From NCBI GenBank assembly GCA_023898645.1, contig CP060232.1:750001-782000 (forward strand): 32,000 nucleotides of DNA. Reading direction: 5' to 3'. Below the pieces are notes generated by a model. The model was given only the letters and a program-made list of their open reading frames with translations. It did no database searches and was not told where the DNA came from. Position numbers and translations under genes: made by a program. Position 1 is the stretch's first letter; every line of letters starts with the position of its first letter. The DNA comes from Candidatus Saccharimonadota bacterium (GTDB lineage Bacteria > Patescibacteriota > Saccharimonadia > Saccharimonadales > Saccharimonadaceae). Of this stretch, positions 3,235-25,284 are shown piece by piece.

Positions 3235-4770
3235 TTACTCCTCAAATCCTTTCGCTACAGCCTTGGCAACCTTTTCGAGCAACTTGGCAGTGTCGGTATC
3301 ATCGGCGATTTTTTCCTCACCCTTGTTGAGTTCTTGCATGTCCTTTTTGTGATCAGTCCATAGGCGAGTTAGCAAAGCAGTCTTAGCCTCTTGGATTTTA
3401 GCAACAGGAACTTTGTCGAACGAACCGCTGTTAACGGCATAGATACTAGCAACCTGCTCCCAGACACCCATCGGTGTGTACTGATGCTGTTTGAGTAGCT
3501 CGGTCAAGCGCTGGCCGCGTTCAATTTGCGACTTAGTTGCTTCGTCTAGGTCACTACCAAACTGCGCAAAGCTTGCGAGTTCGCGATACTGACTTAGGCC
3601 AAGCTTCAAGTGTGAACCGACGGATTTCACGGATTTTGTTTGCGCGTCACCACCGACACGGCTCACTGACAAACCAGCACTAATAGCCGGACGGATACCT
3701 TGGTTAAACAGATCAGTTTCCATAAAGATCTGACCGTCAGTGATGGAAATAACGTTAGTCGGAATATACGCAGAGATGTCGCCAGCTTGCGTTTCAATGA
3801 TTGGCAGAGCAGTCAATGAACCAGCACCGAGGTCGTCAGACAACTTAGCTGAACGCTCGAGAAGGCGAGAGTGCAGGTAGAACACGTCCCCAGGGAAGGC
3901 TTCGCGGCCTGGTGGACGGCGAAGTAGAAGTGACATCTGGCGATAGGCGACAGCATGCTTCGTAAGATCGTCGTAAATAATCAGCGCGTGCTTCTTGTTG
4001 TCGCGGAAGTATTCACCCATGGCAGTTGCGGCATATGGAGCAAGGTAAAGCAGAGAAGCGGGGTCAGACGGACCGGTCGCAACTACTATAGTTTGGTCCA
4101 TAACGCCTTCGGCCTTCAAACGTTCAACCAAGCGTGCGGTTTTACTGAGCTTCTGACCGATAGCGACATAAATATTCACGACGCCAGTCTTTTGACGGCC
4201 TTGGTTGATCATAGTGTCAATCGCAATAGCAGTCTTACCGGTCTGGCGGTCGCCAATGATCAACTCACGCTGACCGCGACCAATAGGGAACATCGCGTCA
4301 ATCGACATAACACCAGTCATCATAGGCTCATGCACGTGCTTACGGCCAAGTACGCCGATTGCTTCGCGCTCAACCAAGCCGCGTTGCTTCGTTTTGATTT
4401 CTGGACCGCCATCAAGCGGGCGTCCGAGTGGGTCAACCACTCGTCCAAGGAGCTCTTCGCCCACAGGCACGTCAAGCACCGTACCCTTAAGCTTCACTTT
4501 ACTACCAGCAGATACCGTTTCGTCACCGCCCAGCAATACGGCGCCGATTTCATCTTCATTCAAGTTCAGGGCAAACGCCTCAACAATTCCTTTGTCTGTC
4601 TCGATCTCGAGCACCTCGCTATAACCGGCTGCACGCAGGCCGTACACCCATGCCACGCCGTCACCAACGCGGGTAACGATCCCGACGCTTTCCAAATCAC
4701 CCGACACTTCGAGTGCCGTGATAGCGTCGCGGAGTTCTTTGCTGAGGTCTGTAACTGATAGTTCTGCCAT
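3235..4770 (-). CDS. atpA: F1 ATP synthase alpha subunit
   Basis: 511 aa. Walker A GDRQTGKT and full-length alpha-subunit similarity. Confidence 0.97.
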
Positions 4771-4780
4771 AATTTCTTCC

Positions 4781-5170
4781 TTATATCTTGCTTGCTGTTA
4801 ATTGGTTGAGTCGATGACGGAGTGTCATGTCTAGCCGCTGGTCTGGAGTCTCTATGCGCACACCACCGAGCAAAGTCGGGTCGACCGACGATCTAAGGTG
4901 GATTTGCTTAGCGTTTGTTGCGTGTTTCAAAAAGCTAGAGACAGCAGCTTCGGTGTCCGCGGTCAGTTCGCGGCTACTCGCAATGTCTGCTAGTAATACA
5001 CCGCGATCCGAAAGGGCAGCCTCGATATCTCGTACAAACAGTACTGTTTCGCGCGTTCGTTTGGCTTCTACCAAATACGCGGCAAGCTCCTTTGTGACAC
5101 TCCGGCCAGCCAGTAGCTCATCGGCAAAATACGCAGCAACTTTACGCCGCGACAACCGGACTCCTGCCAT
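4781..5170 (-). CDS. atpH: ATP synthase delta (OSCP) subunit, unusually short at 129 aa
   Basis: The position between atpF and atpA fits delta. The C-terminal [28 protein letters not shown] matches the delta/OSCP signature. Confidence 0.8.
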
Positions 5171-5976: not shown

Positions 5977-6795
5977 TCATTCCGTCGACACGGCCGTGTG
6001 TTTATGAGTGCCGTTTGGAGAATGATCGATAGAAGTGAGCGGTTCTTCGTGCGAACCATGACTTTCAACAGCCAGTGACGTAAAGATAACGGTAAGTATA
6101 AAGAATACATACGCCTGCACGAAACCGATGAACAATTCGAAGCCCATAAATAAAGGCAACGCCAAAACAGAGAAGTAGCTCGTGAGTACACCGATGATAA
6201 CGAGGAGAATCTCGCCCGCAAAACAGTTACCGAACATTCGGACGCTTAGCGCGGCATAACGTGAGAATTCTCCGATAAATTCCAATGCGCCTTCAAATGA
6301 TCCGATGGGATCTTTCAGTGGGTTGCGGAAATACCGACCCATGTTTCCGATAGGTCCATGGGCGCGGATGGCATGGTACTGCACGGTTATTAGCACGATT
6401 ATCGCTACCGCGAAGGTGAAGTTCAAGTCGGCAGCCAACGACCGCAGCACCGGCACGTCGTTATATTTGACAGAGTCTAGCCCTGGCAAGACACTCATCC
6501 AGTACGAAAACAACATGATGAAAAAGATACTGAGCGCGAGCGGCGCAACTTTACGAGCAAGCCGTGGGTCCGGTATGACACTTTCCACCTGACCGAGCAT
6601 TCCCTCGAAAGCCCACTGCACTAGTCCGACAAAGCGGTTATAACGACCTCGTTTTAGCATATAAACGACGTAGGCGAACACGGCTAGCATCACCGTAACA
6701 CCAGCGGCTCCAGTTAGTTCAGAATTAGTTACAGGAAAACCAGCTACTTTAAATAGCTCCTGAGCACCGACACTAATTTCTATTCCGCTAGACAT
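5977..6795 (-). CDS. atpB: Fo ATP synthase a subunit
   Basis: 272-aa polytopic protein. The conserved LSVRMFGNCFAGE motif carries the essential Arg. Confidence 0.9.
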   Translation of the reverse strand: MSSGIEISVGAQELFKVAGFPVTNSELTGAAGVTVMLAVFAYVVYMLKRGRYNRFVGLVQWAFEGMLGQVESVIPDPRLARKVAPLALSIFFIMLFSYWMSVLPGLDSVKYNDVPVLRSLAADLNFTFAVAIIVLITVQYHAIRAHGPIGNMGRYFRNPLKDPIGSFEGALEFIGEFSRYAALSVRMFGNCFAGEILLVIIGVLTSYFSVLALPLFMGFELFIGFVQAYVFFILTVIFTSLAVESHGSHEEPLTSIDHSPNGTHKHTAVSTE

Positions 6796-7048
6796 CTTTT
6801 GCCGCCTTTACATATTGTTGTCTTATCAAAAACGCCGTCACAACGATACCGATTGTTAGGCCACCGATGCCATACCATGGCTCAGTCTTAAATTGGCCGT
6901 CGAGCCAGAGACCTATTCCTGTACCGCCAAGTGTCGGTAGAAACATCCTCCAGGTCGTATCCGCAGCTGTCGCAAACAATAAAATGACCGTCGATTTCTC
7001 AGGCGGTGTAGGCTTGTCGTCGCTTTTTTTAGCCGCGGCAGCGCTCAT
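6788..7048 (-). CDS. AtpZ/AtpI-like small membrane protein (ATPase_gene1 family)
   Basis: Two TM helices, and it is the first gene of the atp operon. I prefer the start at M23 (ATG 7048) because the longer form would overlap the divergent gene at 7089. Confidence 0.6.
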   Translation of the reverse strand: MSAAAAKKSDDKPTPPEKSTVILLFATAADTTWRMFLPTLGGTGIGLWLDGQFKTEPWYGIGGLTIGIVVTAFLIRQQYVKAAKDV

Positions 7049-7088
7049 TACGGTATATACTGTAACAGAGAAAGTACCCCATATCAAG

Positions 7089-7289
7089 ATGCCTCGACGA
7101 CATAAACCAATCAAACATACGCCCTACAGTTTACCCGATAACGAAAGGGGCAAGACACGCTATCCTAGCGAACTGGCAGCCAAAAAAGCAGCAGAATTAA
7201 TCATGCTTCAGAACCCTCATCTTGAACTACGAGTCTATCAAGCATCAAACGGCGGTTGGTATTTAACCAGACAAAACACCGACAGATAA
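7089..7289 (+). CDS. hypothetical 66-aa basic protein (..RVYQASNGGWYLTRQ C-terminus)
   Basis: Internal ATG of track ORF 6867..7289. It is divergent from the atp operon. It resembles small proteins that end in a G-W-[HY]-L-T motif, recalled from memory only. Confidence 0.5.
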   Translation: MPRRHKPIKHTPYSLPDNERGKTRYPSELAAKKAAELIMLQNPHLELRVYQASNGGWYLTRQNTDR

Positions 7290-7318
7290 TTGACACCACA
7301 TAAAACATATCGTAATAT
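7290..7318 (+). promoter_or_regulatory. promoter of cassette A: TTGACA 7290-7295, 17-nt spacer, TAATAT 7313-7318
   Basis: Hexamers read directly from the sequence. The predicted TSS is near 7325, inside the palindrome TGACGTCA (7318-7325). Confidence 0.5.
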
Positions 7319-7349
7319 GACGTCACTTCACGTAGGTGGTGTAACTGAG

Positions 7350-7488
7350 GTACCTTGACAAGCAGACAAGCACAAGGTGAGGTGCAGAGGCGCGGACAAC
7401 GGCGCCACTCCATCTCATCTTGTGTTGGTAAGAATACACAAGCAGGGTTAGCCCTGAGGACAATCGCCTGTGAGAAACCGGAAGGAAA
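7350..7488 (+). promoter_or_regulatory. conserved structured 5' leader, copy A (139 nt, identical to 8093-8231)
   Basis: Base-for-base identity with copy B. Hand fold gives a 16-bp helix 7369-7384/7411-7426, an alternative hairpin 7419-7425/7436-7442, and a hairpin 7443-7447/7452-7456. It ends in the SD GGAAGGA. Confidence 0.6.
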
Positions 7489-7493
7489 CTGCG

Positions 7494-7898
7494 ATGACAA
7501 TCGCAATCCAAAAGGGCCGGGCGATAGTCTTGGCCTTACTGATGGCAATAGCAATGCTATTTGCAACAGGGGTTTCGACCTCGGTACTGCCACGAGCTCA
7601 TGCCGACAACTGGACGCGCATTGAAAACTACGCGTGGCAAGGAGGCAACTTCGCATGCGATGCCGTGCGAGTCATCGGACCGTATTGGGGTGCCGCGTCC
7701 TACGCCAACTGGAACCTGTGGCGCATCAATGATAATAAATCTTGGACACGACAAGATCTCTCTATCGTGCTTGCGCTTGGTGCCGCCCAGAAGTGTCCTG
7801 AATACTTCTGGATTTTCGCGTACCAGATACCTCCGGAAATCGCACAGCGCATCGCACCGCCACCCCCGCCCGCACCCGCACCACCAGCTCTACCGTAG
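7494..7898 (+). CDS. small secreted protein with a signal peptide and a Pro-rich C-terminal tail
   Basis: MTIAIQKGRAIVLALLMAIAMLFATGVSTSVLPRAHA|DNW has the n-h-c regions of a signal peptide and an AHA cleavage site. The tail is APPPPPAPAPPALP. SD GGAAGGA lies 7 nt upstream. The track start at 7470 (GTG) is rejected. Confidence 0.75.
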   Translation: MTIAIQKGRAIVLALLMAIAMLFATGVSTSVLPRAHADNWTRIENYAWQGGNFACDAVRVIGPYWGAASYANWNLWRINDNKSWTRQDLSIVLALGAAQKCPEYFWIFAYQIPPEIAQRIAPPPPPAPAPPALP

Positions 7899-7920
7899 AA
7901 AACTCTTTTAAATAGAGCAC

Positions 7921-7970
7921 GGAAGTGGCAAGCAGGCGGGTGTATTCATACCCGTCTGTTTGTCGCTTTC
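7921..7970 (+). repeat. conserved 3' UTR stem-loop, copy A (20 bp, 10-nt loop)
   Basis: 7921-7940 pairs with 7951-7970. The stem has 5 G-U/U-G wobbles that are valid only in a + strand transcript. It is homologous to 9595-9643. Confidence 0.6.
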
Positions 7971-7977
7971 ATTTCAC

Positions 7978-8002
7978 AGCCCCTTCGGGGGCTTATTTTT
8001 TT
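7978..8002 (+). terminator. intrinsic terminator of cassette A
   Basis: AGCCCC-TTCG-GGGGCT followed by TATTTTTTT. Identical to 9646-9670. Confidence 0.85.
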
Positions 8003-8092
8003 GAAGCAGTAATTGACATAATGCTAATGATTATGTTGTAGTTGTAGTTATTTATAAAATATGTCAAAATACCACCAACTTCAGTCACTGAA

Positions 8093-8231
8093 GTACCTTG
8101 ACAAGCAGACAAGCACAAGGTGAGGTGCAGAGGCGCGGACAACGGCGCCACTCCATCTCATCTTGTGTTGGTAAGAATACACAAGCAGGGTTAGCCCTGA
8201 GGACAATCGCCTGTGAGAAACCGGAAGGAAA
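8093..8231 (+). promoter_or_regulatory. conserved structured 5' leader, copy B
   Basis: Identical to 7350-7488. Preceded by the TTGACA box at 8013-8018. Confidence 0.6.
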
Positions 8232-8234
8232 ACG

Positions 8235-8327
8235 ATGAAAATCGCAATCCCAAGGTGCCGGGCGATAGTCTCGGTACGCACCATCGTCACCTACGACACG
8301 AATCGAACTGGAGGCTACGTATCATGA
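8235..8327 (+). CDS. 30-codon upstream ORF / leader peptide ([30 protein letters not shown])
   Basis: It uses the same SD and ATG position as the cassette A gene. Its first 13 codons are homologous to that signal-peptide start. Its stop TGA overlaps the ACAD ATG (ATGA at 8324-8327). Confidence 0.35.
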
Positions 8328-9559
8328 CCGAATCGAAACCGACATTCTCGCTGGAACTACCCGAAGACGTAGCCGATCTACGTGACTGGATCCATGAGTT
8401 CGCGGCGAATAAAGTTCGCCCGGCAGGGCATGAGTGGGACGAGCGTGAGGAAACGCCTTGGCCTATCATCAAAGAAGCGGCCAAAGTCGGAATCTATACG
8501 CCAGAGTTCTTTGCTCAAATGGCGTTCGACAAAAGCGGCCTCTTGATGCCCGTTGCGCACGAAGAGCTGTTCTGGGGTGACGCCGGTATCGCGCTGTCGA
8601 TTCTTGGCACCGGATTGGCCGCCGCCGCACTCTCAACGAATGCAATTGCGGGCGGCAGACCCGATCAGCTCCAGTGGTTAGCACCGATGTTTGGTACTCC
8701 CGAGGACCCCAAAGTCGCCGCATTCTGTTCTTCGGAACCGGGTGCGGGATCTGATGTTGGCGCCGTACGTACTCGTGCGCGCTACGATCAAGCAACAGAC
8801 GAATGGGTGCTTAACGGTACCAAAACGTGGGCGACCAATGGCGGTATCGCCAATATCCACATTGTCGTTGCATCGGTTTATCCCGAGCTCGGCAGCCGTG
8901 GACAAGTGTCGTTCATCGTGCCACCGAACACCCCGGGATTGTCTCAGGGGCAAAAGTTCAAGAAGCACGGCATCCGTGCATCGCACACTGCCGAGGTCGT
9001 ACTTGACAACGTACGACTTTCCAGCGACCTTCTCATCGGTGGTATGGAAAGTTTCGAAAAGCGAATTGCCAAAGTGCGCGCAGGCGGCAGTGCTGGCGGG
9101 CAAGCGGCAATGGCGACGTTCGAAAAGACACGTCCGTCGGTTGGCGCAATGGCCGTTGGCGTAGCGAGAGCAGCGTACGAGTACGCTCTCGAGTACGCCG
9201 GTCAGCGCGAGCAGTTCGGTCATAAGATCGGTGATTTTCAGGCCGTCGGGTTCAAACTCGCCGACATGAAAACGCAGATCGATGCCGCTCGACTGCTGGT
9301 CTGGCGTGCGGCTTGGATGGGCGCGAACAATAAGCCCTTCAACAGTGCCGAAGGCTCCATGGCCAAACTGTTTGCCAGTGAGACCTCCGTCCGAGTCACC
9401 GAAGAGGCTATTCAAATCCTCGGTGGTAACGGCTACACGCGGGACTACCCGGTGGAACGCTGGCATCGCGATTCCAAGATCTTTACGATCTTCGAAGGCA
9501 CCAGCGAAATCCAACGGCTAGTCATCGCACGAAGGCTCACCGGCCTGCCGCTCCGCTAG
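8324..9559 (+). CDS. acyl-CoA dehydrogenase (FadE-like)
   Basis: 411 aa with full-length ACAD similarity ([23 protein letters not shown] catalytic-Glu region). GGAGG lies 10 nt before ATG 8324. The 37-codon N-terminal extension in the track (GTG 8213) lies inside the leader and is rejected. Confidence 0.93.
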
Positions 9560-9594
9560 CGTCACTTTCAACAACTGAATAACAATTTCATCGT

Positions 9595-9643
9595 GGAAGT
9601 GACAAGCAGACGGCGTATTCACACCCGTCTGTTTGTCACTTTC
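9595..9643 (+). repeat. conserved 3' UTR stem-loop, copy B (19 bp)
   Basis: 9595-9613 pairs with 9625-9643. Three differences from copy A all preserve pairing (G-U to A-U or U-G to U-A). Confidence 0.6.
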
Positions 9644-9645
9644 AT

Positions 9646-9670
9646 AGCCCCTTCGGGGGCTTATTTTTTT
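9646..9670 (+). terminator. intrinsic terminator of cassette B
   Basis: AGCCCC-TTCG-GGGGCT followed by TATTTTTTT. Confidence 0.85.
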
Positions 9671-9679
9671 AAATAATCA

Positions 9680-9709
9680 TTGACATAAATCCAATAAAGT
9701 AATTATATA
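9680..9709 (+). promoter_or_regulatory. promoter: TTGACA 9680-9685 with TTATAT/TATATA about 17-18 nt downstream
   Basis: The -35 box is part of the conserved 3' module (ATTGACATA). The downstream ATG at 9720 would give a very short leader. Confidence 0.4.
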
Positions 9710-9719
9710 CATTACTACC

Positions 9720-10799
9720 ATGGGAAAACGAATGGCCGATTGCCTTGCTCTCTCTAACCGCATAGAGGAGTATTCAATCGGTGCCGACCTCATACACATT
9801 CCACCATCTCGCGACTACACCATTGGCGGCATTCACGCACTCCGCAGCCATATATACAAACTTCTTGAATTAGGTGATAACGATGATCTGTCTGTGTCCA
9901 GAAGCGTAAATCACTTTTTCAACCGTACCGACTACAAGGTTGCACGAGACGATCTAAATGAAAATCTCGACACACCGATCCAGCCAGATATCGTCGAATG
10001 GATAAGTACGGCATCCGACCATGACATAGAGCAATTCTGTATATGGAGTCTTTGCCGGACCATCTATCTTACTGGTTCACTTTCGCGCGATAAATCAAAA
10101 TTCACGGACCACGCTATGGACAAAACAGAAAAACTTATCTCTATCGGCCTGTTCCCGCCGTTTGCTCATTCCATTATGCGCAATGCAACCAATCGCTACG
10201 ACCTACGAGGGCTCGACTCATTTCATAGTGTAGGTTTACATAGGATTGCTTATTGCGGCGACGACGAAATTGGTGTTAGCAATCTATATGTTAATCGGAA
10301 AAATATGTCTATTCCGTCAAAGGAAATGAAAAGAACTATGTTTCATGAATACATTCATGGTGGTGGAAATGATCGTGGCTTCTTTAATGGCATTACAGGC
10401 AGTCATTGCATGCGCATCCTCGAAGAAGCGTTTGTCGAACATGCTACCGTAGTCGCTCATACGACACTCATCAGACAACCCAGTGTTATTCACCCTAAAA
10501 AACGCCTAAAACTATTCGAAGAAACCAGTGGCACATACGTGCCCGAACGAACCTTCCTCGCGACCACGTGCGATTATACCGGTATCTCCATCGAACACCT
10601 TAGCGAGGCATACTTCAGCCCTCGTGGAGACAGGCGTGGAGAATGGCTGCGCCATGGCATCGAGCGTAAAATTGGTAAATTCTTTGGTAGTCGTGAAAGT
10701 TTTTATAACTTTATTAATGCATATGAAAATATCAAACACACCGATCGCAACAGTTTCGTCTATGGCACGATTAACGAATTAACGAAGTGCGTCACATAG
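9720..10799 (+). CDS. hypothetical protein with a zincin-like HExxH motif (putative metallopeptidase)
   Basis: 359 aa. MFHEYIHG, plus EEAFVEH 24 residues downstream, gives gluzincin-like spacing. No signal peptide. The gene looks AT-richer than its neighbours by eye. The function is inferred from the motif only. Confidence 0.7.
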   Translation: MGKRMADCLALSNRIEEYSIGADLIHIPPSRDYTIGGIHALRSHIYKLLELGDNDDLSVSRSVNHFFNRTDYKVARDDLNENLDTPIQPDIVEWISTASDHDIEQFCIWSLCRTIYLTGSLSRDKSKFTDHAMDKTEKLISIGLFPPFAHSIMRNATNRYDLRGLDSFHSVGLHRIAYCGDDEIGVSNLYVNRKNMSIPSKEMKRTMFHEYIHGGGNDRGFFNGITGSHCMRILEEAFVEHATVVAHTTLIRQPSVIHPKKRLKLFEETSGTYVPERTFLATTCDYTGISIEHLSEAYFSPRGDRRGEWLRHGIERKIGKFFGSRESFYNFINAYENIKHTDRNSFVYGTINELTKCVT

Positions 10800-11165: not shown

Positions 11166-11184
11166 TCGCCTGCAAACATGAAAA

Positions 11185-11206
11185 CGCCCACAACTGGGCG
11201 TTTTTT
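11185..11206 (+). terminator. intrinsic terminator after the glutaredoxin-like gene
   Basis: CGCCCA-CAAC-TGGGCG followed by TTTTTT. It lies inside the 5' part of track ORF 11178.., which argues against that start. Confidence 0.8.
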
Positions 11207-11243
11207 CATAGTAAGAGGTAATTCGTTATATAATCATGAACCA

Positions 11244-12692
11244 ATGAACGAACAACGGGAACATGATTACGCTTTTGACGACTATCGTAACGACTTGCCG
11301 CCACGCGCCATGGGCAGTGAAACCGAATATACCAACGATTGCAACGTCGAAAAGTTGCTTAATCGCAGTCATTACGGCGGGCTTAATCGTAAACTGACGC
11401 ATTTTATACACCCGCGCTACTTTATCTCACCTGGTCGACACACAGCTCCCAGCGCCGTCACAAGTAACGGTGGCGAAGTATACTTAGACGTCACCGTACT
11501 CGAATACGCCACACCGGAATGCACGTCGTCAGAAGAACTTGTACTCCACGAGCGTAGTGGTGAGCAAATCATATGTGACACCATTGCAAGAATCGGCCTG
11601 TCAAATAGACTCCAGCCAAAAGTATACAAACGCAGTGGCTACGTAGAGGTCTGGGCAAAAAACCATTCCGTGCCCATCCTCGATGAAACAAGCATCGGTC
11701 ACCACGAAAGCTATACGAGCCTCAACGTCTTTTCGGCTATGCCGCTCGCAAATAGGGAAAACGAGATGTGCCGCAATACTGAAGCTCGTCAGTTCGCCGA
11801 CTACCTTGCCTTACGAAAACTTATAGACGGCGTAGGCATGGTAGCGGGCGACCATTTCTCAATCACTCAAAAACCACGCGCTATCGATTACAATTCTTTT
11901 ACCCGCGATACCGGTAGAGTAGGGAAAAAGCCTTTTCAGCAAAAAATGTCCCGACTCGAAGTTCGAAGCGGCGAAGGAAATAAATCCGACTGGGCCGTCG
12001 AGTTTAAGGCAGGACTGACGTCTCTCGTGCTACGACTCATCGAGCACAGAAGTTATCCGAAACAGCTGAAGCTATACGATCCAAATACTGCCGTCTTGAG
12101 AATCGCGCGCGACCCTATGGCCGACGTCTTACTCGAATCAGGCGCATACATGAAGGCGGTCGACGTGCTAAAAGGCATCGTCGACGCCGCCTACGAACTT
12201 GGACAAAAATTTGAAAACCTTCCCGCATACGAGCAAAAAGCCTACAATGATTTCATCCAATTCTATGACGATTTGCACAAAGTCAATCTGAAAGAAAACG
12301 ACGTTTCCGCGCTTTCCGATCGCATAGACTGGGCGGCGCGTTATGAATTCCTTATGCGACGCGGCGCGTCTTATGACACCATCACGACCGATGATCTACA
12401 GCAAGTCCAATACGATTTACTCTGGGATCGAATCGGTGAAAAAGACATCGCTCGCAAATGGTTTTCTCGATTCGGCCACACGGCCCTTTCGGTAGAAATT
12501 CCTGCACCGCCTCAAACACGCGCCGAAACACGTGTCCAAATCGCTAAAGAACTTTACGCAGCCGGCACCTTACGCAACGTCGATTGGAATAACATTTCGA
12601 CCAATGATGGTCACAGATACATTTCGCGTCATCCTTTAAGCAAAACTATGGAACGAATCGAAGACGATCAACCAACTGCTTATTATTCCTAA
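11244..12692 (+). CDS. PafA/Dop family amidoligase (Pup-ligase / depupylase family)
   Basis: Collinear matches to PafA/Dop blocks recalled from M. tuberculosis: MGSETEY (GIETEFG), NGGEVYLDVTVLEYATPEC ([20 protein letters not shown]), SIGHHESYT (SYGCHENYL), RLEVRSGEGN..LVLRLIE (RLHVIVGDSN..LVLEMIE), RIDWAARYEF (EIDWVIKRKL), PPQTRAE (PPQTTRA). The start at 11244 follows the terminator and TATAAT 11229-11234. An alternative start is 11310. Confidence 0.85.
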   Translation: MNEQREHDYAFDDYRNDLPPRAMGSETEYTNDCNVEKLLNRSHYGGLNRKLTHFIHPRYFISPGRHTAPSAVTSNGGEVYLDVTVLEYATPECTSSEELVLHERSGEQIICDTIARIGLSNRLQPKVYKRSGYVEVWAKNHSVPILDETSIGHHESYTSLNVFSAMPLANRENEMCRNTEARQFADYLALRKLIDGVGMVAGDHFSITQKPRAIDYNSFTRDTGRVGKKPFQQKMSRLEVRSGEGNKSDWAVEFKAGLTSLVLRLIEHRSYPKQLKLYDPNTAVLRIARDPMADVLLESGAYMKAVDVLKGIVDAAYELGQKFENLPAYEQKAYNDFIQFYDDLHKVNLKENDVSALSDRIDWAARYEFLMRRGASYDTITTDDLQQVQYDLLWDRIGEKDIARKWFSRFGHTALSVEIPAPPQTRAETRVQIAKELYAAGTLRNVDWNNISTNDGHRYISRHPLSKTMERIEDDQPTAYYS

Positions 12693-25197: not shown

Positions 25198-25284
25198 TGG
25201 TACCGCGGGCCGGACTTGAACCGGCACGTCCTTGCGAACACCAGATTTTGAGTCTAGCGCGTCTACCAATTCCGCCACCGCGGC
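25198..25284 (-). tRNA. tRNA-Leu (anticodon CAA), class II with long variable arm, CCA encoded
   Basis: The reverse complement reads GCCGCGGUGGCGGAAUUGGUAGACGCGCUAGACUCAAAAUCUGGUGUUCGCAAGGACGUGCCGGUUCAAGUCCGGCCCGCGGUACCA. The cloverleaf folds by hand, and the D-arm is identical to E. coli tRNA-Leu. Confidence 0.92.

Follow-up and report, generated by a model that had tools for sequence, protein, structure and literature searches.

A conserved structured leader in tandem gene cassettes of Saccharibacteria

The DNA analyzed is a stretch of 32,000 nucleotides (nt) from a Candidatus Saccharimonadota bacterium (GenBank assembly GCA_023898645.1, contig CP060232.1, positions 750,001 to 782,000 of the forward strand), here termed the window, and positions given below are those of the window unless a contig is named. 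It contains two copies of a 139-nt sequence in front of two genes, and an earlier note made from the sequence alone had proposed that this is a structured cis-regulatory RNA. The 139-mer is the core of an approximately 190-nt structured leader, which is the common 5′ module of gene cassettes in a narrow Saccharibacteria-like clade. The leader probably serves as a cis-acting post-transcriptional module of these tandem cassettes, acting on translation initiation and mRNA stability.

Cassettes in the window

Each of the two cassettes consists, in order, of its own predicted promoter, a 5′-terminal hairpin (P0), a 13-nt box, the hairpins P1 and P2, a translation initiation domain, the protein-coding cargo, a hairpin (H3) in the 3′ untranslated region (UTR) and a terminator. 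The features are as follows (aa, amino acids; bp, base pairs; SD, Shine-Dalgarno sequence; uORF, upstream open reading frame).

7290–7318 (+): promoter of cassette A, TTGACA-17-TAATAT, predicted (10/12 in a consensus scan)
7325–7351 (+): P0 of copy A, 5′-terminal hairpin ACUUCA...UGAGGU at the predicted transcript start
7341–7533 (+): leader copy A, with the exact core at 7350–7488; covariance model R1, 118.9 bits at 7352–7463
7355–7367 (+): 5′ box UUGACAAGCAGAC, single-stranded, complementary to the 3′ arm of its own 3′-UTR hairpin
7369–7426 (+): P1, long hairpin with an invariant 12-bp base, CACAAGRUGAG/CUCAUCUUGUG, and a variable covarying apex (RNAalifold)
7436–7442 (+): segment Z (ACACAAG), alternative partner for 7419–7425 in place of the P1 5′ strand
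7443–7456 (+): P2, hairpin CAGGG-loop-CCCUG, 5 pairs
7458–7470 in the 5′ UTR with 7518–7530 in codons 9–13 (+): P3, long-range helix that encloses SD and AUG
7480–7509 (+): translation initiation region, with SD GGAAGGA at 7480–7486, P4 at 7490–7505 over AUG 7494, and GGA of the SD (7484–7486) paired with UCC 7507–7509
7494–7898 (+): cargo A (gene A), encoding a secreted all-alpha protein of 134 aa with 2 conserved Cys; the 193/213-aa two-domain proteins are its paralogues
7924–7967 (+): H3 of cassette A, with its 3′ arm GUCUGUUUGUCGC at 7954–7966
7978–8003 (+): intrinsic terminator of cassette A, repeated at 9646–9671
8042–8070 (+): promoter of cassette B, TTGTAG-17-TGTCAAAAT, extended −10, predicted by the authors' own reading
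8078–8094 (+): P0 of copy B, ACUUCAG-UCA-CUGAAGU
8084–8274 (+): leader copy B, R1 118.9 bits, with 5′ box 8098–8110, P1 8112–8169, P2 8186–8199, P3 8201–8213/8259–8271, SD 8223–8229 and P4 8233–8244
8235–8327 (+): 30-codon uORF, whose first 13 codons contain the P3 3′ strand and whose stop overlaps the dehydrogenase start (ATGA, 8324–8327)
8324–9559 (+): cargo B, acyl-CoA dehydrogenase of 411 aa (Pfam and NCBIfam), high GC, Actinobacteria-like
9594–9644 (+): H3 of cassette B, with its 3′ arm at 9627–9639
9646–9671 (+): intrinsic terminator of cassette B

Homologous contigs are referred to below by L numbers. The arrangement TTGAC(A/T)-17-TAnnAT, as in the promoter of cassette A, is also found behind the p66 gene in L006, L014, L015, L016 and L020. 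In an alignment of eight inter-cassette spacers the TTG, TG and A.AAT positions of the cassette B promoter are invariant. An H3-type hairpin is conserved after every cassette at all loci.

The p66 gene (7089–7289, + strand) encodes a conserved 66-aa basic protein. At all loci that extend far enough it immediately precedes the first leader, and by this position only p66 is a candidate partner of the leader. It matches neither a Pfam or NCBIfam family nor any solved structure. Downstream of the array, a 359-aa conserved protein (9720–10799, + strand) displays an HExxH motif (MFHEYIHG) and has no Pfam or NCBIfam match. A Pup-ligase gene (PafA/Dop-like, PF03136) lies beside a glutaredoxin gene, at 11178–12692 (+ strand) in the window and at 9833–12402 in L004, and related loci have two adjacent copies of it.

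Extent of the repeat

Base by base comparison shows that 7350–7488 and 8093–8231 are identical over all 139 nt. The repeat itself starts at 7341/8084 (7341–7488 and 8084–8231, with 2 mismatches), and past a 2-nt indel behind the SD it runs through the first 13 codons to 7533/8274, i.e. 193 nt with 95% identity. The sequences upstream of the two copies are unrelated, as had been stated, and two different promoter types are found there. After the start codons 32 of 39 nt match without gaps, and not 34 as claimed; the homology does stop thereafter. The SD GGAAGGA is at 7480–7486 and 8223–8229, with a spacing of 7 nt to ATG 7494 and of 5 nt to ATG 8235. Of the two downstream genes, the second does not begin at ATG 8235, which is the start of the 30-codon uORF and not of the dehydrogenase gene itself.

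The 3′ flanks of the cassettes are repeated as well (7921–8021 and 9595–9688, 84% identity). Each contains an approximately 20-bp hairpin, the intrinsic terminator and the next promoter. Thus the repeated unit is the whole cassette frame, with a different cargo inside.

Other genomes have a further conserved multi-hairpin element after the 3′ hairpin and ahead of the next promoter (L004 6460–6608, L006 6420–6495, L014 6532–6610, L025 590–665); in the window this position is occupied by the canonical intrinsic terminators (7978–8003 and 9646–9671). The element is closed by a stem UUUCGCUU/AAGCGAAA and displays a hairpin CAUAGAU..AUCUGUG that covaries and a GUCC-AAAA-GGAC hairpin, with z values down to −6.9. 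This element may be an unusual terminator or a small RNA (sRNA).

Homologous leaders and their locus

The gene A product is identical to a protein of an NCBI metagenome-assembled genome labelled Candidatus Nomurabacteria (1.13-Mb contig), and a search of 5.8 billion proteins gave only 11 further relatives; an exact-protein look-up gave no record under that start. Homologous leaders were gathered from the contigs of the gene A relatives and from one metagenome and one genome pattern scan. Approximately 20 leader copies were found in 13 independent contigs, all from Saccharibacteria/Patescibacteria. The identity of the leader core across these contigs, which come from different samples and species, is 46%–95% and mostly 60%–90%.

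The metagenome scan, which used the 5′ box and a CGCCTRTGAGA block as anchors, gave only 2 contigs, thus the family is rare in that collection. The genome scan gave 9 loci. Four of these (in Aminicenantes, Bacteroidota, Udaeobacter and Paenibacillus) were rejected as chance matches, having neither a hidden Markov model nor a covariance model match. The contig P0018, with a long dehydrogenase open reading frame (ORF), was rejected as a further leader locus; this actinobacterial contig has a GC content of 69% and no leader, and serves as a negative control.

All copies are at one syntenic locus, which is bordered on one side by the ATP-synthase operon and the 66-aa gene and on the opposite side by the genes for the HExxH protein, glutaredoxin and Pup ligase. 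There is one leader locus per genome (5 genomes). The leader family is confined to this narrow, uncultured clade. The number of cassettes per genome is 1 to 4, and their number, order and content differ.

The cargos are of several kinds: gene A-like proteins, 193-/213-aa two-domain secreted Cys proteins, an Xre-like helix-turn-helix (HTH) protein with a short leader and, in nearly every genome, the dehydrogenase. The 193-/213-aa paralogues show a weak, sub-threshold match to DUF732. For gene A itself nothing significant was found in Pfam or NCBIfam. Its AlphaFold2 model is confident, with a predicted local distance difference test (pLDDT) score of 82, and a Foldseek search of it against the PDB gave no match better than E = 1.2. 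The HTH protein is a 238-aa Xre/ParS-antitoxin-like protein (L014 ~4140–4860; L010 4102–4818, − strand), and of the common modules its cassette retains just P0 and the 5′ box, together with the matching 3′ hairpin.

Fold of the leader

RNAalifold was applied to 15 copies and gave P1, P2 and P3, and pairs were then counted on 19 copies in a MAFFT alignment that was not fitted to any structure. Over the whole fold 90.5% of the cells pair, and compensatory change is seen at 17 pairs; 0 of 500 shuffles equal this. When the partners are slid by 1–3 columns the pairing falls to 34%–45%. The earlier note had made its helices depend on compensatory changes in homologues, and such changes are found.

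The 16-bp helix at 7369–7384/7411–7426, with 3 G-U pairs, and its GC cap at 7389–7393/7402–7406 are exactly as had been folded by hand, and the second hairpin (7443–7447/7452–7456) is likewise present in the sequence. All three are kept by compensatory substitutions in homologues. P1, which comprises the first two, has 19 pairs that are 97.5% paired, 7 of them with compensatory change; its base is invariant in sequence and its apex varies yet stays paired. P2 is 91.5% paired, with compensatory change in 3 of its 5 pairs and a variable loop. P3 has 13 pairs that are 87.6% paired, and 3–4 show compensatory change (RNAalifold and the 19-copy counts). This helix, which the earlier note did not have, is recovered independently in minimum free energy (MFE) folds of wB, L4c4, L6a, L15 and L17. 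P4 is 73.7% paired, with 2 pairs that show compensatory change, and a C-G to U-A swap is found in 7 of the 19 copies. P0 is predicted ahead of the 5′ box in nearly all of 21 copies and its stem changes are compensatory by inspection, i.e. ACUUCAG/CUGAAGU, ACUUCAU/AUGAAGU, ACUUCAA/UUGAAGU and ACUUUA/UAGGGU. Single-sequence MFE folds of five diverged copies independently give P0–P4. The substitutions indicate that the helices P1–P4 are evolutionarily maintained. In the thermodynamic model the probability of being unpaired is ~0.55 for the SD and ~0.35 for the AUG.

The structure appears to be one of RNA. On the + strand the fold is more stable than that of shuffled sequences (z = −3.3), and on the − strand it is not (z = −1.6). 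The covariance model R1, built from the box-P1-P2 part of the leader, finds every known copy on the + strand (48–125 bits) and only the P1 palindrome on the − strand (23–37 bits). Exactly two matches are present in the 32-kb window, and R1 has no match at the four chance loci or at an actinobacterial dehydrogenase locus. A DNA operator or palindrome was rejected on the G-U-dependent helices and the strand-specific model scores.

A coding function was also rejected. In copy B a 46-codon ORF with a TTG start spans the P1 apex, and the apex spacings are 46, 47, 48 and 49 across homologues. Since the apex length differs by 1–3 nt the reading frame is not kept, and these indels speak against a coding region and against leader-peptide attenuation. 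No terminator-like site was found on the + strand in 7341–7493 or 8084–8234, which speaks against a transcription attenuator or T-box, and no T-box was among the Rfam matches in the window.

The earlier note had stated that perfect conservation is confined to the untranslated leader. This does not hold. The perfect identity arose locally, through recent gene conversion within this genome (see below) and not through purifying selection, and the functional element reaches the first 13 codons through P3. In the uORFs of L016 and L025 a segment is frameshifted between two indels and GGCCGGGCGAUUGUCUCGGC is unchanged. Thus the first codons are conserved as RNA and not as peptide.

Comparison with known RNA families

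With Rfam 15 at the gathering threshold (4227 families), the whole window gives only a tRNA at 25201–25284 (− strand). At E ≤ 10 on 7200–8400 the best match is mir-4861, with 22.8 bits versus a threshold of 100, and the homologous L004 region gives sub-threshold miRNA hairpin matches only. Searches with the leader in plasmid, phage and viral collections found no similarity. Neither a description of the leader family nor any described RNA regulator from Patescibacteria/Saccharibacteria was found in the literature searches made. The proposal of a structured, conserved leader that acts at the RNA level and has no Rfam match is thus supported.

The lack of an Rfam match is one of several properties that a new riboswitch would display. 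P1, the conserved linker and P2 would then form a small-molecule aptamer, and the ligand would shift 7419–7425 between the P1 5′ strand and segment Z (X:Y/Y:Z pairing), which would open or close the ribosome binding site (RBS) through P3/P4. The leader is a conserved structured domain with covarying stems beside highly conserved unpaired nucleotides, the P1 base is invariant on both strands, as expected if its bases have alternative partners, and the SD/AUG domain could act as the expression platform. The two mutually exclusive folds had been described in the earlier note and can indeed form: the alternative helix 7419–7425/7436–7442 is 97.7% pairable, in all copies but one, with a compensatory change in L009 and, by the authors' reading of the alignment, a shifted equivalent in the most diverged copy, L004 c1. 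However this is the only covarying pair and 41 of 500 shuffles equal it, so that the covariation is not significant, and the helix has 7 bp as compared with ~20 bp for P1 and is far weaker. The alternative pairing is compatible with the alignment but weakly supported. No structural connection from the P1 switch to P3/P4 was identified, and a search for complementarity between the strands freed by the switch and the initiation region gave none that is convincing. Riboswitches associate with genes of one pathway or transport function, however the cargos behind the leader are of three sorts, i.e. the DUF732-like secreted proteins, the acyl-CoA dehydrogenase and the HTH protein of Xre type. One cargo type can also be found both with and without P1–P4, as the leader of the p193 family is full in L004, L009 and L020 and short in L006. 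Considering also the very narrow phylogenetic range and the single locus per genome, a riboswitch is unlikely.

Pairing of the 5′ box with the 3′ UTR

The 5′ box UUGACAAGCAGAC of each window cassette (7355–7367 and 8098–8110) is a 12/13 Watson-Crick complement of the 3′ arm of the H3 hairpin in its own cassette (7954–7966 and 9627–9639). The box is retained in all cassettes, including two with shortened leaders. The box:arm duplex was compared in 15 cassettes, where it is 89% paired and 5 pairs show compensatory change (0–2 of 500 shuffles). Three variant cassettes have changed the box together with their own 3′ arm:

L004, p193 cassette (4062/4853): A-U to C-G
L006, p193 cassette (6556/7244): G-C to A-U
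L014, HTH cassette (4074/4844): G-C to A-U

In each of these the cassette's own arm fits the box better than other arms do, and the neighbouring cassettes keep the standard sequences. The complementarity is 12–15 bp with −15 to −22 kcal/mol in 16 of 17 cassettes; the hairpins themselves have −12 to −35 kcal/mol. Six mRNAs were folded whole, and in three of them, those of the variant cassettes, the 5′-3′ duplex is in the MFE structure with a probability of 0.86–0.99. The 5′ arm of H3 pairs mostly via G-U, thus H3 is a strand-specific RNA structure. The paired changes indicate that the box:arm pairing is kept in evolution and is cassette-specific, and they suggest a pairing of 5′ and 3′ UTR inside each mRNA.

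The H3 hairpins (7922–7969 and 9596–9642) also give weak matches to the P1 part of the leader covariance model (10–11 bits, E = 0.3–0.5). P1 and the 3′ hairpin both contain ACAAG...CUUGU and may be evolutionarily related.

The boxes could instead be sites for a factor acting in trans, with the leader as a platform through which the cassettes would be co-regulated by an RNA-binding protein (e.g. p66), by RNase III at the long helices or by an sRNA. CAAGCAG-type boxes and the P1 base would be the sites. The P1 base and the 5′ box are invariant in sequence and not just in pairing, ACAAGCAG is present both in the box and again where Z meets P2, P1 and H3 are near-perfect helices of 18–22 bp, and the position of the p66 gene beside the first leader is suggestive. 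The heptamer ACAAGCA had been noted three times per leader, and it is present at 7358, 7366 and 7438, however only two of the three are conserved. Against a trans-acting factor, p66 has no match among known RNA-binding families, a candidate sRNA was not found either, and the cassette-specific compensatory changes of box and 3′ arm favour direct pairing in cis. p66 as an RNA-binding regulator was rejected, as no family or solved homologue was found, and the wider proposal of a trans-acting factor is improbable as well. The probability beyond these two proposals, i.e. riboswitch and trans-acting factor, goes mostly to a constitutive or physically tuned element.

The uORF and the acyl-CoA dehydrogenase

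In 8 of 9 distinct dehydrogenase leaders a uORF of 25–30 codons ends 0–7 nt from the ATG of the acyl-CoA dehydrogenase and has a GGAGG-like SD inside its end. The window shows the ATGA overlap at 8324–8327, and gaps of 1–7 nt are found in L004, L006, L010/L014, L015, L016, L017 and L025. The uORF is missing in L018. A uORF stop at the main start codon together with an internal SD is the arrangement associated with translational coupling.

The dehydrogenase gene has a GC content of 56%–59%, as compared with mostly 42%–50% in the flanks. The window protein is 60%–63% identical to Acidimicrobiia/Microthrix proteins and 49%–56% identical to the dehydrogenases of L015 and L017, which in turn are up to 72% identical to Acidimicrobiales proteins. 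The dehydrogenase was probably acquired from Actinobacteria, and the same leader slot may have received it more than once.

Identity of the two copies

In L004, L006, L014 and L025 the cores of paralogous leaders of the same genome share 48%–78% identity, as compared with 98.5%–100% in the window. Copy A is 86%–87% identical to dehydrogenase-type leaders elsewhere versus 65%–68% to the leaders of orthologous gene A cassettes, which argues that it was recently overwritten by the neighbouring dehydrogenase leader. The base-for-base identity is thus attributed to recent gene conversion or recombination and is not a sign of extreme selection. Independent short-read assemblies break exactly at the repeat end (8202 = 8231 minus 29), which shows that the repeat is real.

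The contig L003 (ENA ERZ27248697 k141_105927), from another sample, equals window positions 6491–7488 joined to 8232–9656, with 0 mismatches in 2423 nt. This is the exact product of a leader-to-leader deletion of 743 bp that removes gene A, and its layout is that of the natural single-cassette loci L015 and L016. L003 may be either a real strain variant formed by leader-leader recombination or an assembly shortcut.

Two copies that are identical, adjacent and flanked by repeated 3′ segments could be a functionless recent tandem duplication, in which a promoter-proximal segment was copied with the gene start, or an artefact of assembly. The precise deletion in L003 and the short-read contigs that break at the repeat would fit such an origin. 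However the leader is conserved across 13 contigs with compensatory changes in four helices, and a real repeat would also break independent assemblies exactly at its end. As a full explanation this is contradicted and very improbable; it survives only for the 100% identity, as gene conversion.

The variation of cassette number (1 to 4), order and content at one locus, the imperfect hairpin that ends every cassette and the horizontal acquisition of the dehydrogenase might point to the end of a mobile element, i.e. an insertion sequence (IS) or a miniature inverted-repeat transposable element (MITE), or to an integron-like recombination site that moves cassettes. The earlier note had itself raised the IS/MITE end. 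With two covariance-model copies in 32 kb, one locus per genome in 5 genomes and no match in the plasmid, phage and viral collections, the repeat is not such an end. No terminal inverted repeats or target-site duplications were seen and no transposase or integrase family is present among the Pfam annotations of the called locus genes. In addition, each cassette has its own conserved promoter-like region, which together with the lack of an integrase family among these annotations led to rejection of an integron-like array. The G-U-rich, strand-specific helices indicate a structure of RNA and not of DNA, and homologous recombination between the repeated modules is enough for the rearrangements. 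A mobile-element or integron-like origin is thus scarcely credible.

Proposed mode of action

In the proposed cis-acting module, P3 and P4 would keep SD and AUG inside a folded domain that has to unfold for initiation, and translation would thereby be limited or tuned. As the first 13 codons belong to the element, they would serve secreted cargos as the positively charged start of a signal peptide. The cytoplasmic, horizontally acquired dehydrogenase is instead placed behind a uORF of 25–30 codons ending at its start codon, and control would be relayed from the uORF by translational coupling. P0 and the 5′-3′ UTR pairing would influence mRNA stability or processing.

Several observations weigh against this proposal. 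In the thermodynamic model the occlusion of the SD is no more than partial (probability unpaired ~0.55). In the whole-mRNA fold of window gene A the probability of the 5′-3′ duplex is ~0; in the window cassettes the high stability of the 3′ hairpin (−30 to −35 kcal/mol) means that the duplex (−18 to −19 kcal/mol) is not predicted at equilibrium. L018 has no P3/P4 and no uORF, and two cassettes (L006 6542–6632 and L014 ~4055–4140) retain only P0 and the box, thus the P1–P4 part is dispensable for some cargos. The cargos have no obvious common functional theme that points to a signal. The support comes from a small set of related sequences, several of them paralogues, so that shuffle controls can overstate it, and some of the apparent events, e.g. 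the P4 C-G to U-A change, may be single events. The promoters, the transcript ends and every structure are predictions from ~20 related sequences.

It is conceivable, if rather doubtful, that the leader with its 13 embedded codons and the matching 3′-UTR hairpin make up a portable post-transcriptional "expression cassette" system. The 5′ domain would then be a true sensor (riboswitch or protein switch), the box:arm pairing would close the mRNA, and the system would let Saccharibacteria co-regulate a family of surface or secreted proteins and domesticate genes taken from their actinobacterial hosts, e.g. the dehydrogenase by way of the uORF.

Relation to known systems and significance

The proposed cis-acting module resembles leaders that occlude the RBS, i.e. 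translational riboswitches, ribosomal-protein leaders and RNA thermometers, in being a long conserved 5′ UTR with covarying helices and with SD/AUG in a folded domain directly before the ORF. Unlike these, it matches none of the 4227 Rfam families, extends 37 nt into the coding region, has an SD that is partly paired, and is restricted to a single locus within a narrow clade.

The short ORF-11 in attI1 of class 1 integrons helps to translate cassettes that have no initiation region of their own. The uORF here is similar in that a short ORF starts from the leader SD/AUG, stops within 7 nt of a foreign gene and has an internal GGAGG-like SD. It differs in that its 5′ part is conserved as RNA (P3 strand) and not as peptide and in that integron machinery is lacking; the coupling is predicted. 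Stem-loops at the 5′ terminus that stabilise the mRNA are present in E. coli ompA and in the B. subtilis aprE and ermC leaders. P0 is comparable to these, as it starts within a few nt of the predicted transcription start with both promoter types.

Interaction of the two UTRs has been described in other bacteria. In B. subtilis hbs a 14-bp 5′/3′-UTR interaction modulates cleavage by RNase Y (PMC5737220), and S. aureus icaR shows pairing of the 3′ UTR with the SD region and cleavage by RNase III (PMC3868564). The same complementarity of 12–15 nt between 5′ and 3′ UTR of one transcript is found here, where it is predicted and is backed by cassette-specific compensatory changes. Unlike in icaR, the 5′ partner is ~115 nt upstream of the SD and not over it. 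Unlike in both systems, the 3′ partner as a rule is tied up in a hairpin of its own, and the pair of modules is reused on several genes. The extension into the coding region, the reuse with different cargos, the predicted relay through a uORF and the covarying 5′-3′ UTR complementarity are the unusual features of this leader.

The leader illustrates the reuse, with different cargos, of a regulatory RNA that extends into coding sequence, as its coding part serves as a signal-peptide start or as a uORF that feeds a horizontally acquired enzyme. The genomes of Patescibacteria/Saccharibacteria are tiny, and a recent perspective names riboswitch-type control in the 5′ UTR as a wished-for tool for these organisms (PMC11665869). 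The leader is a natural, compact and conserved element of defined architecture that is directly testable. Should its trigger prove to be a metabolite or a signal from the host, the leader would give access to host sensing by these epibionts.

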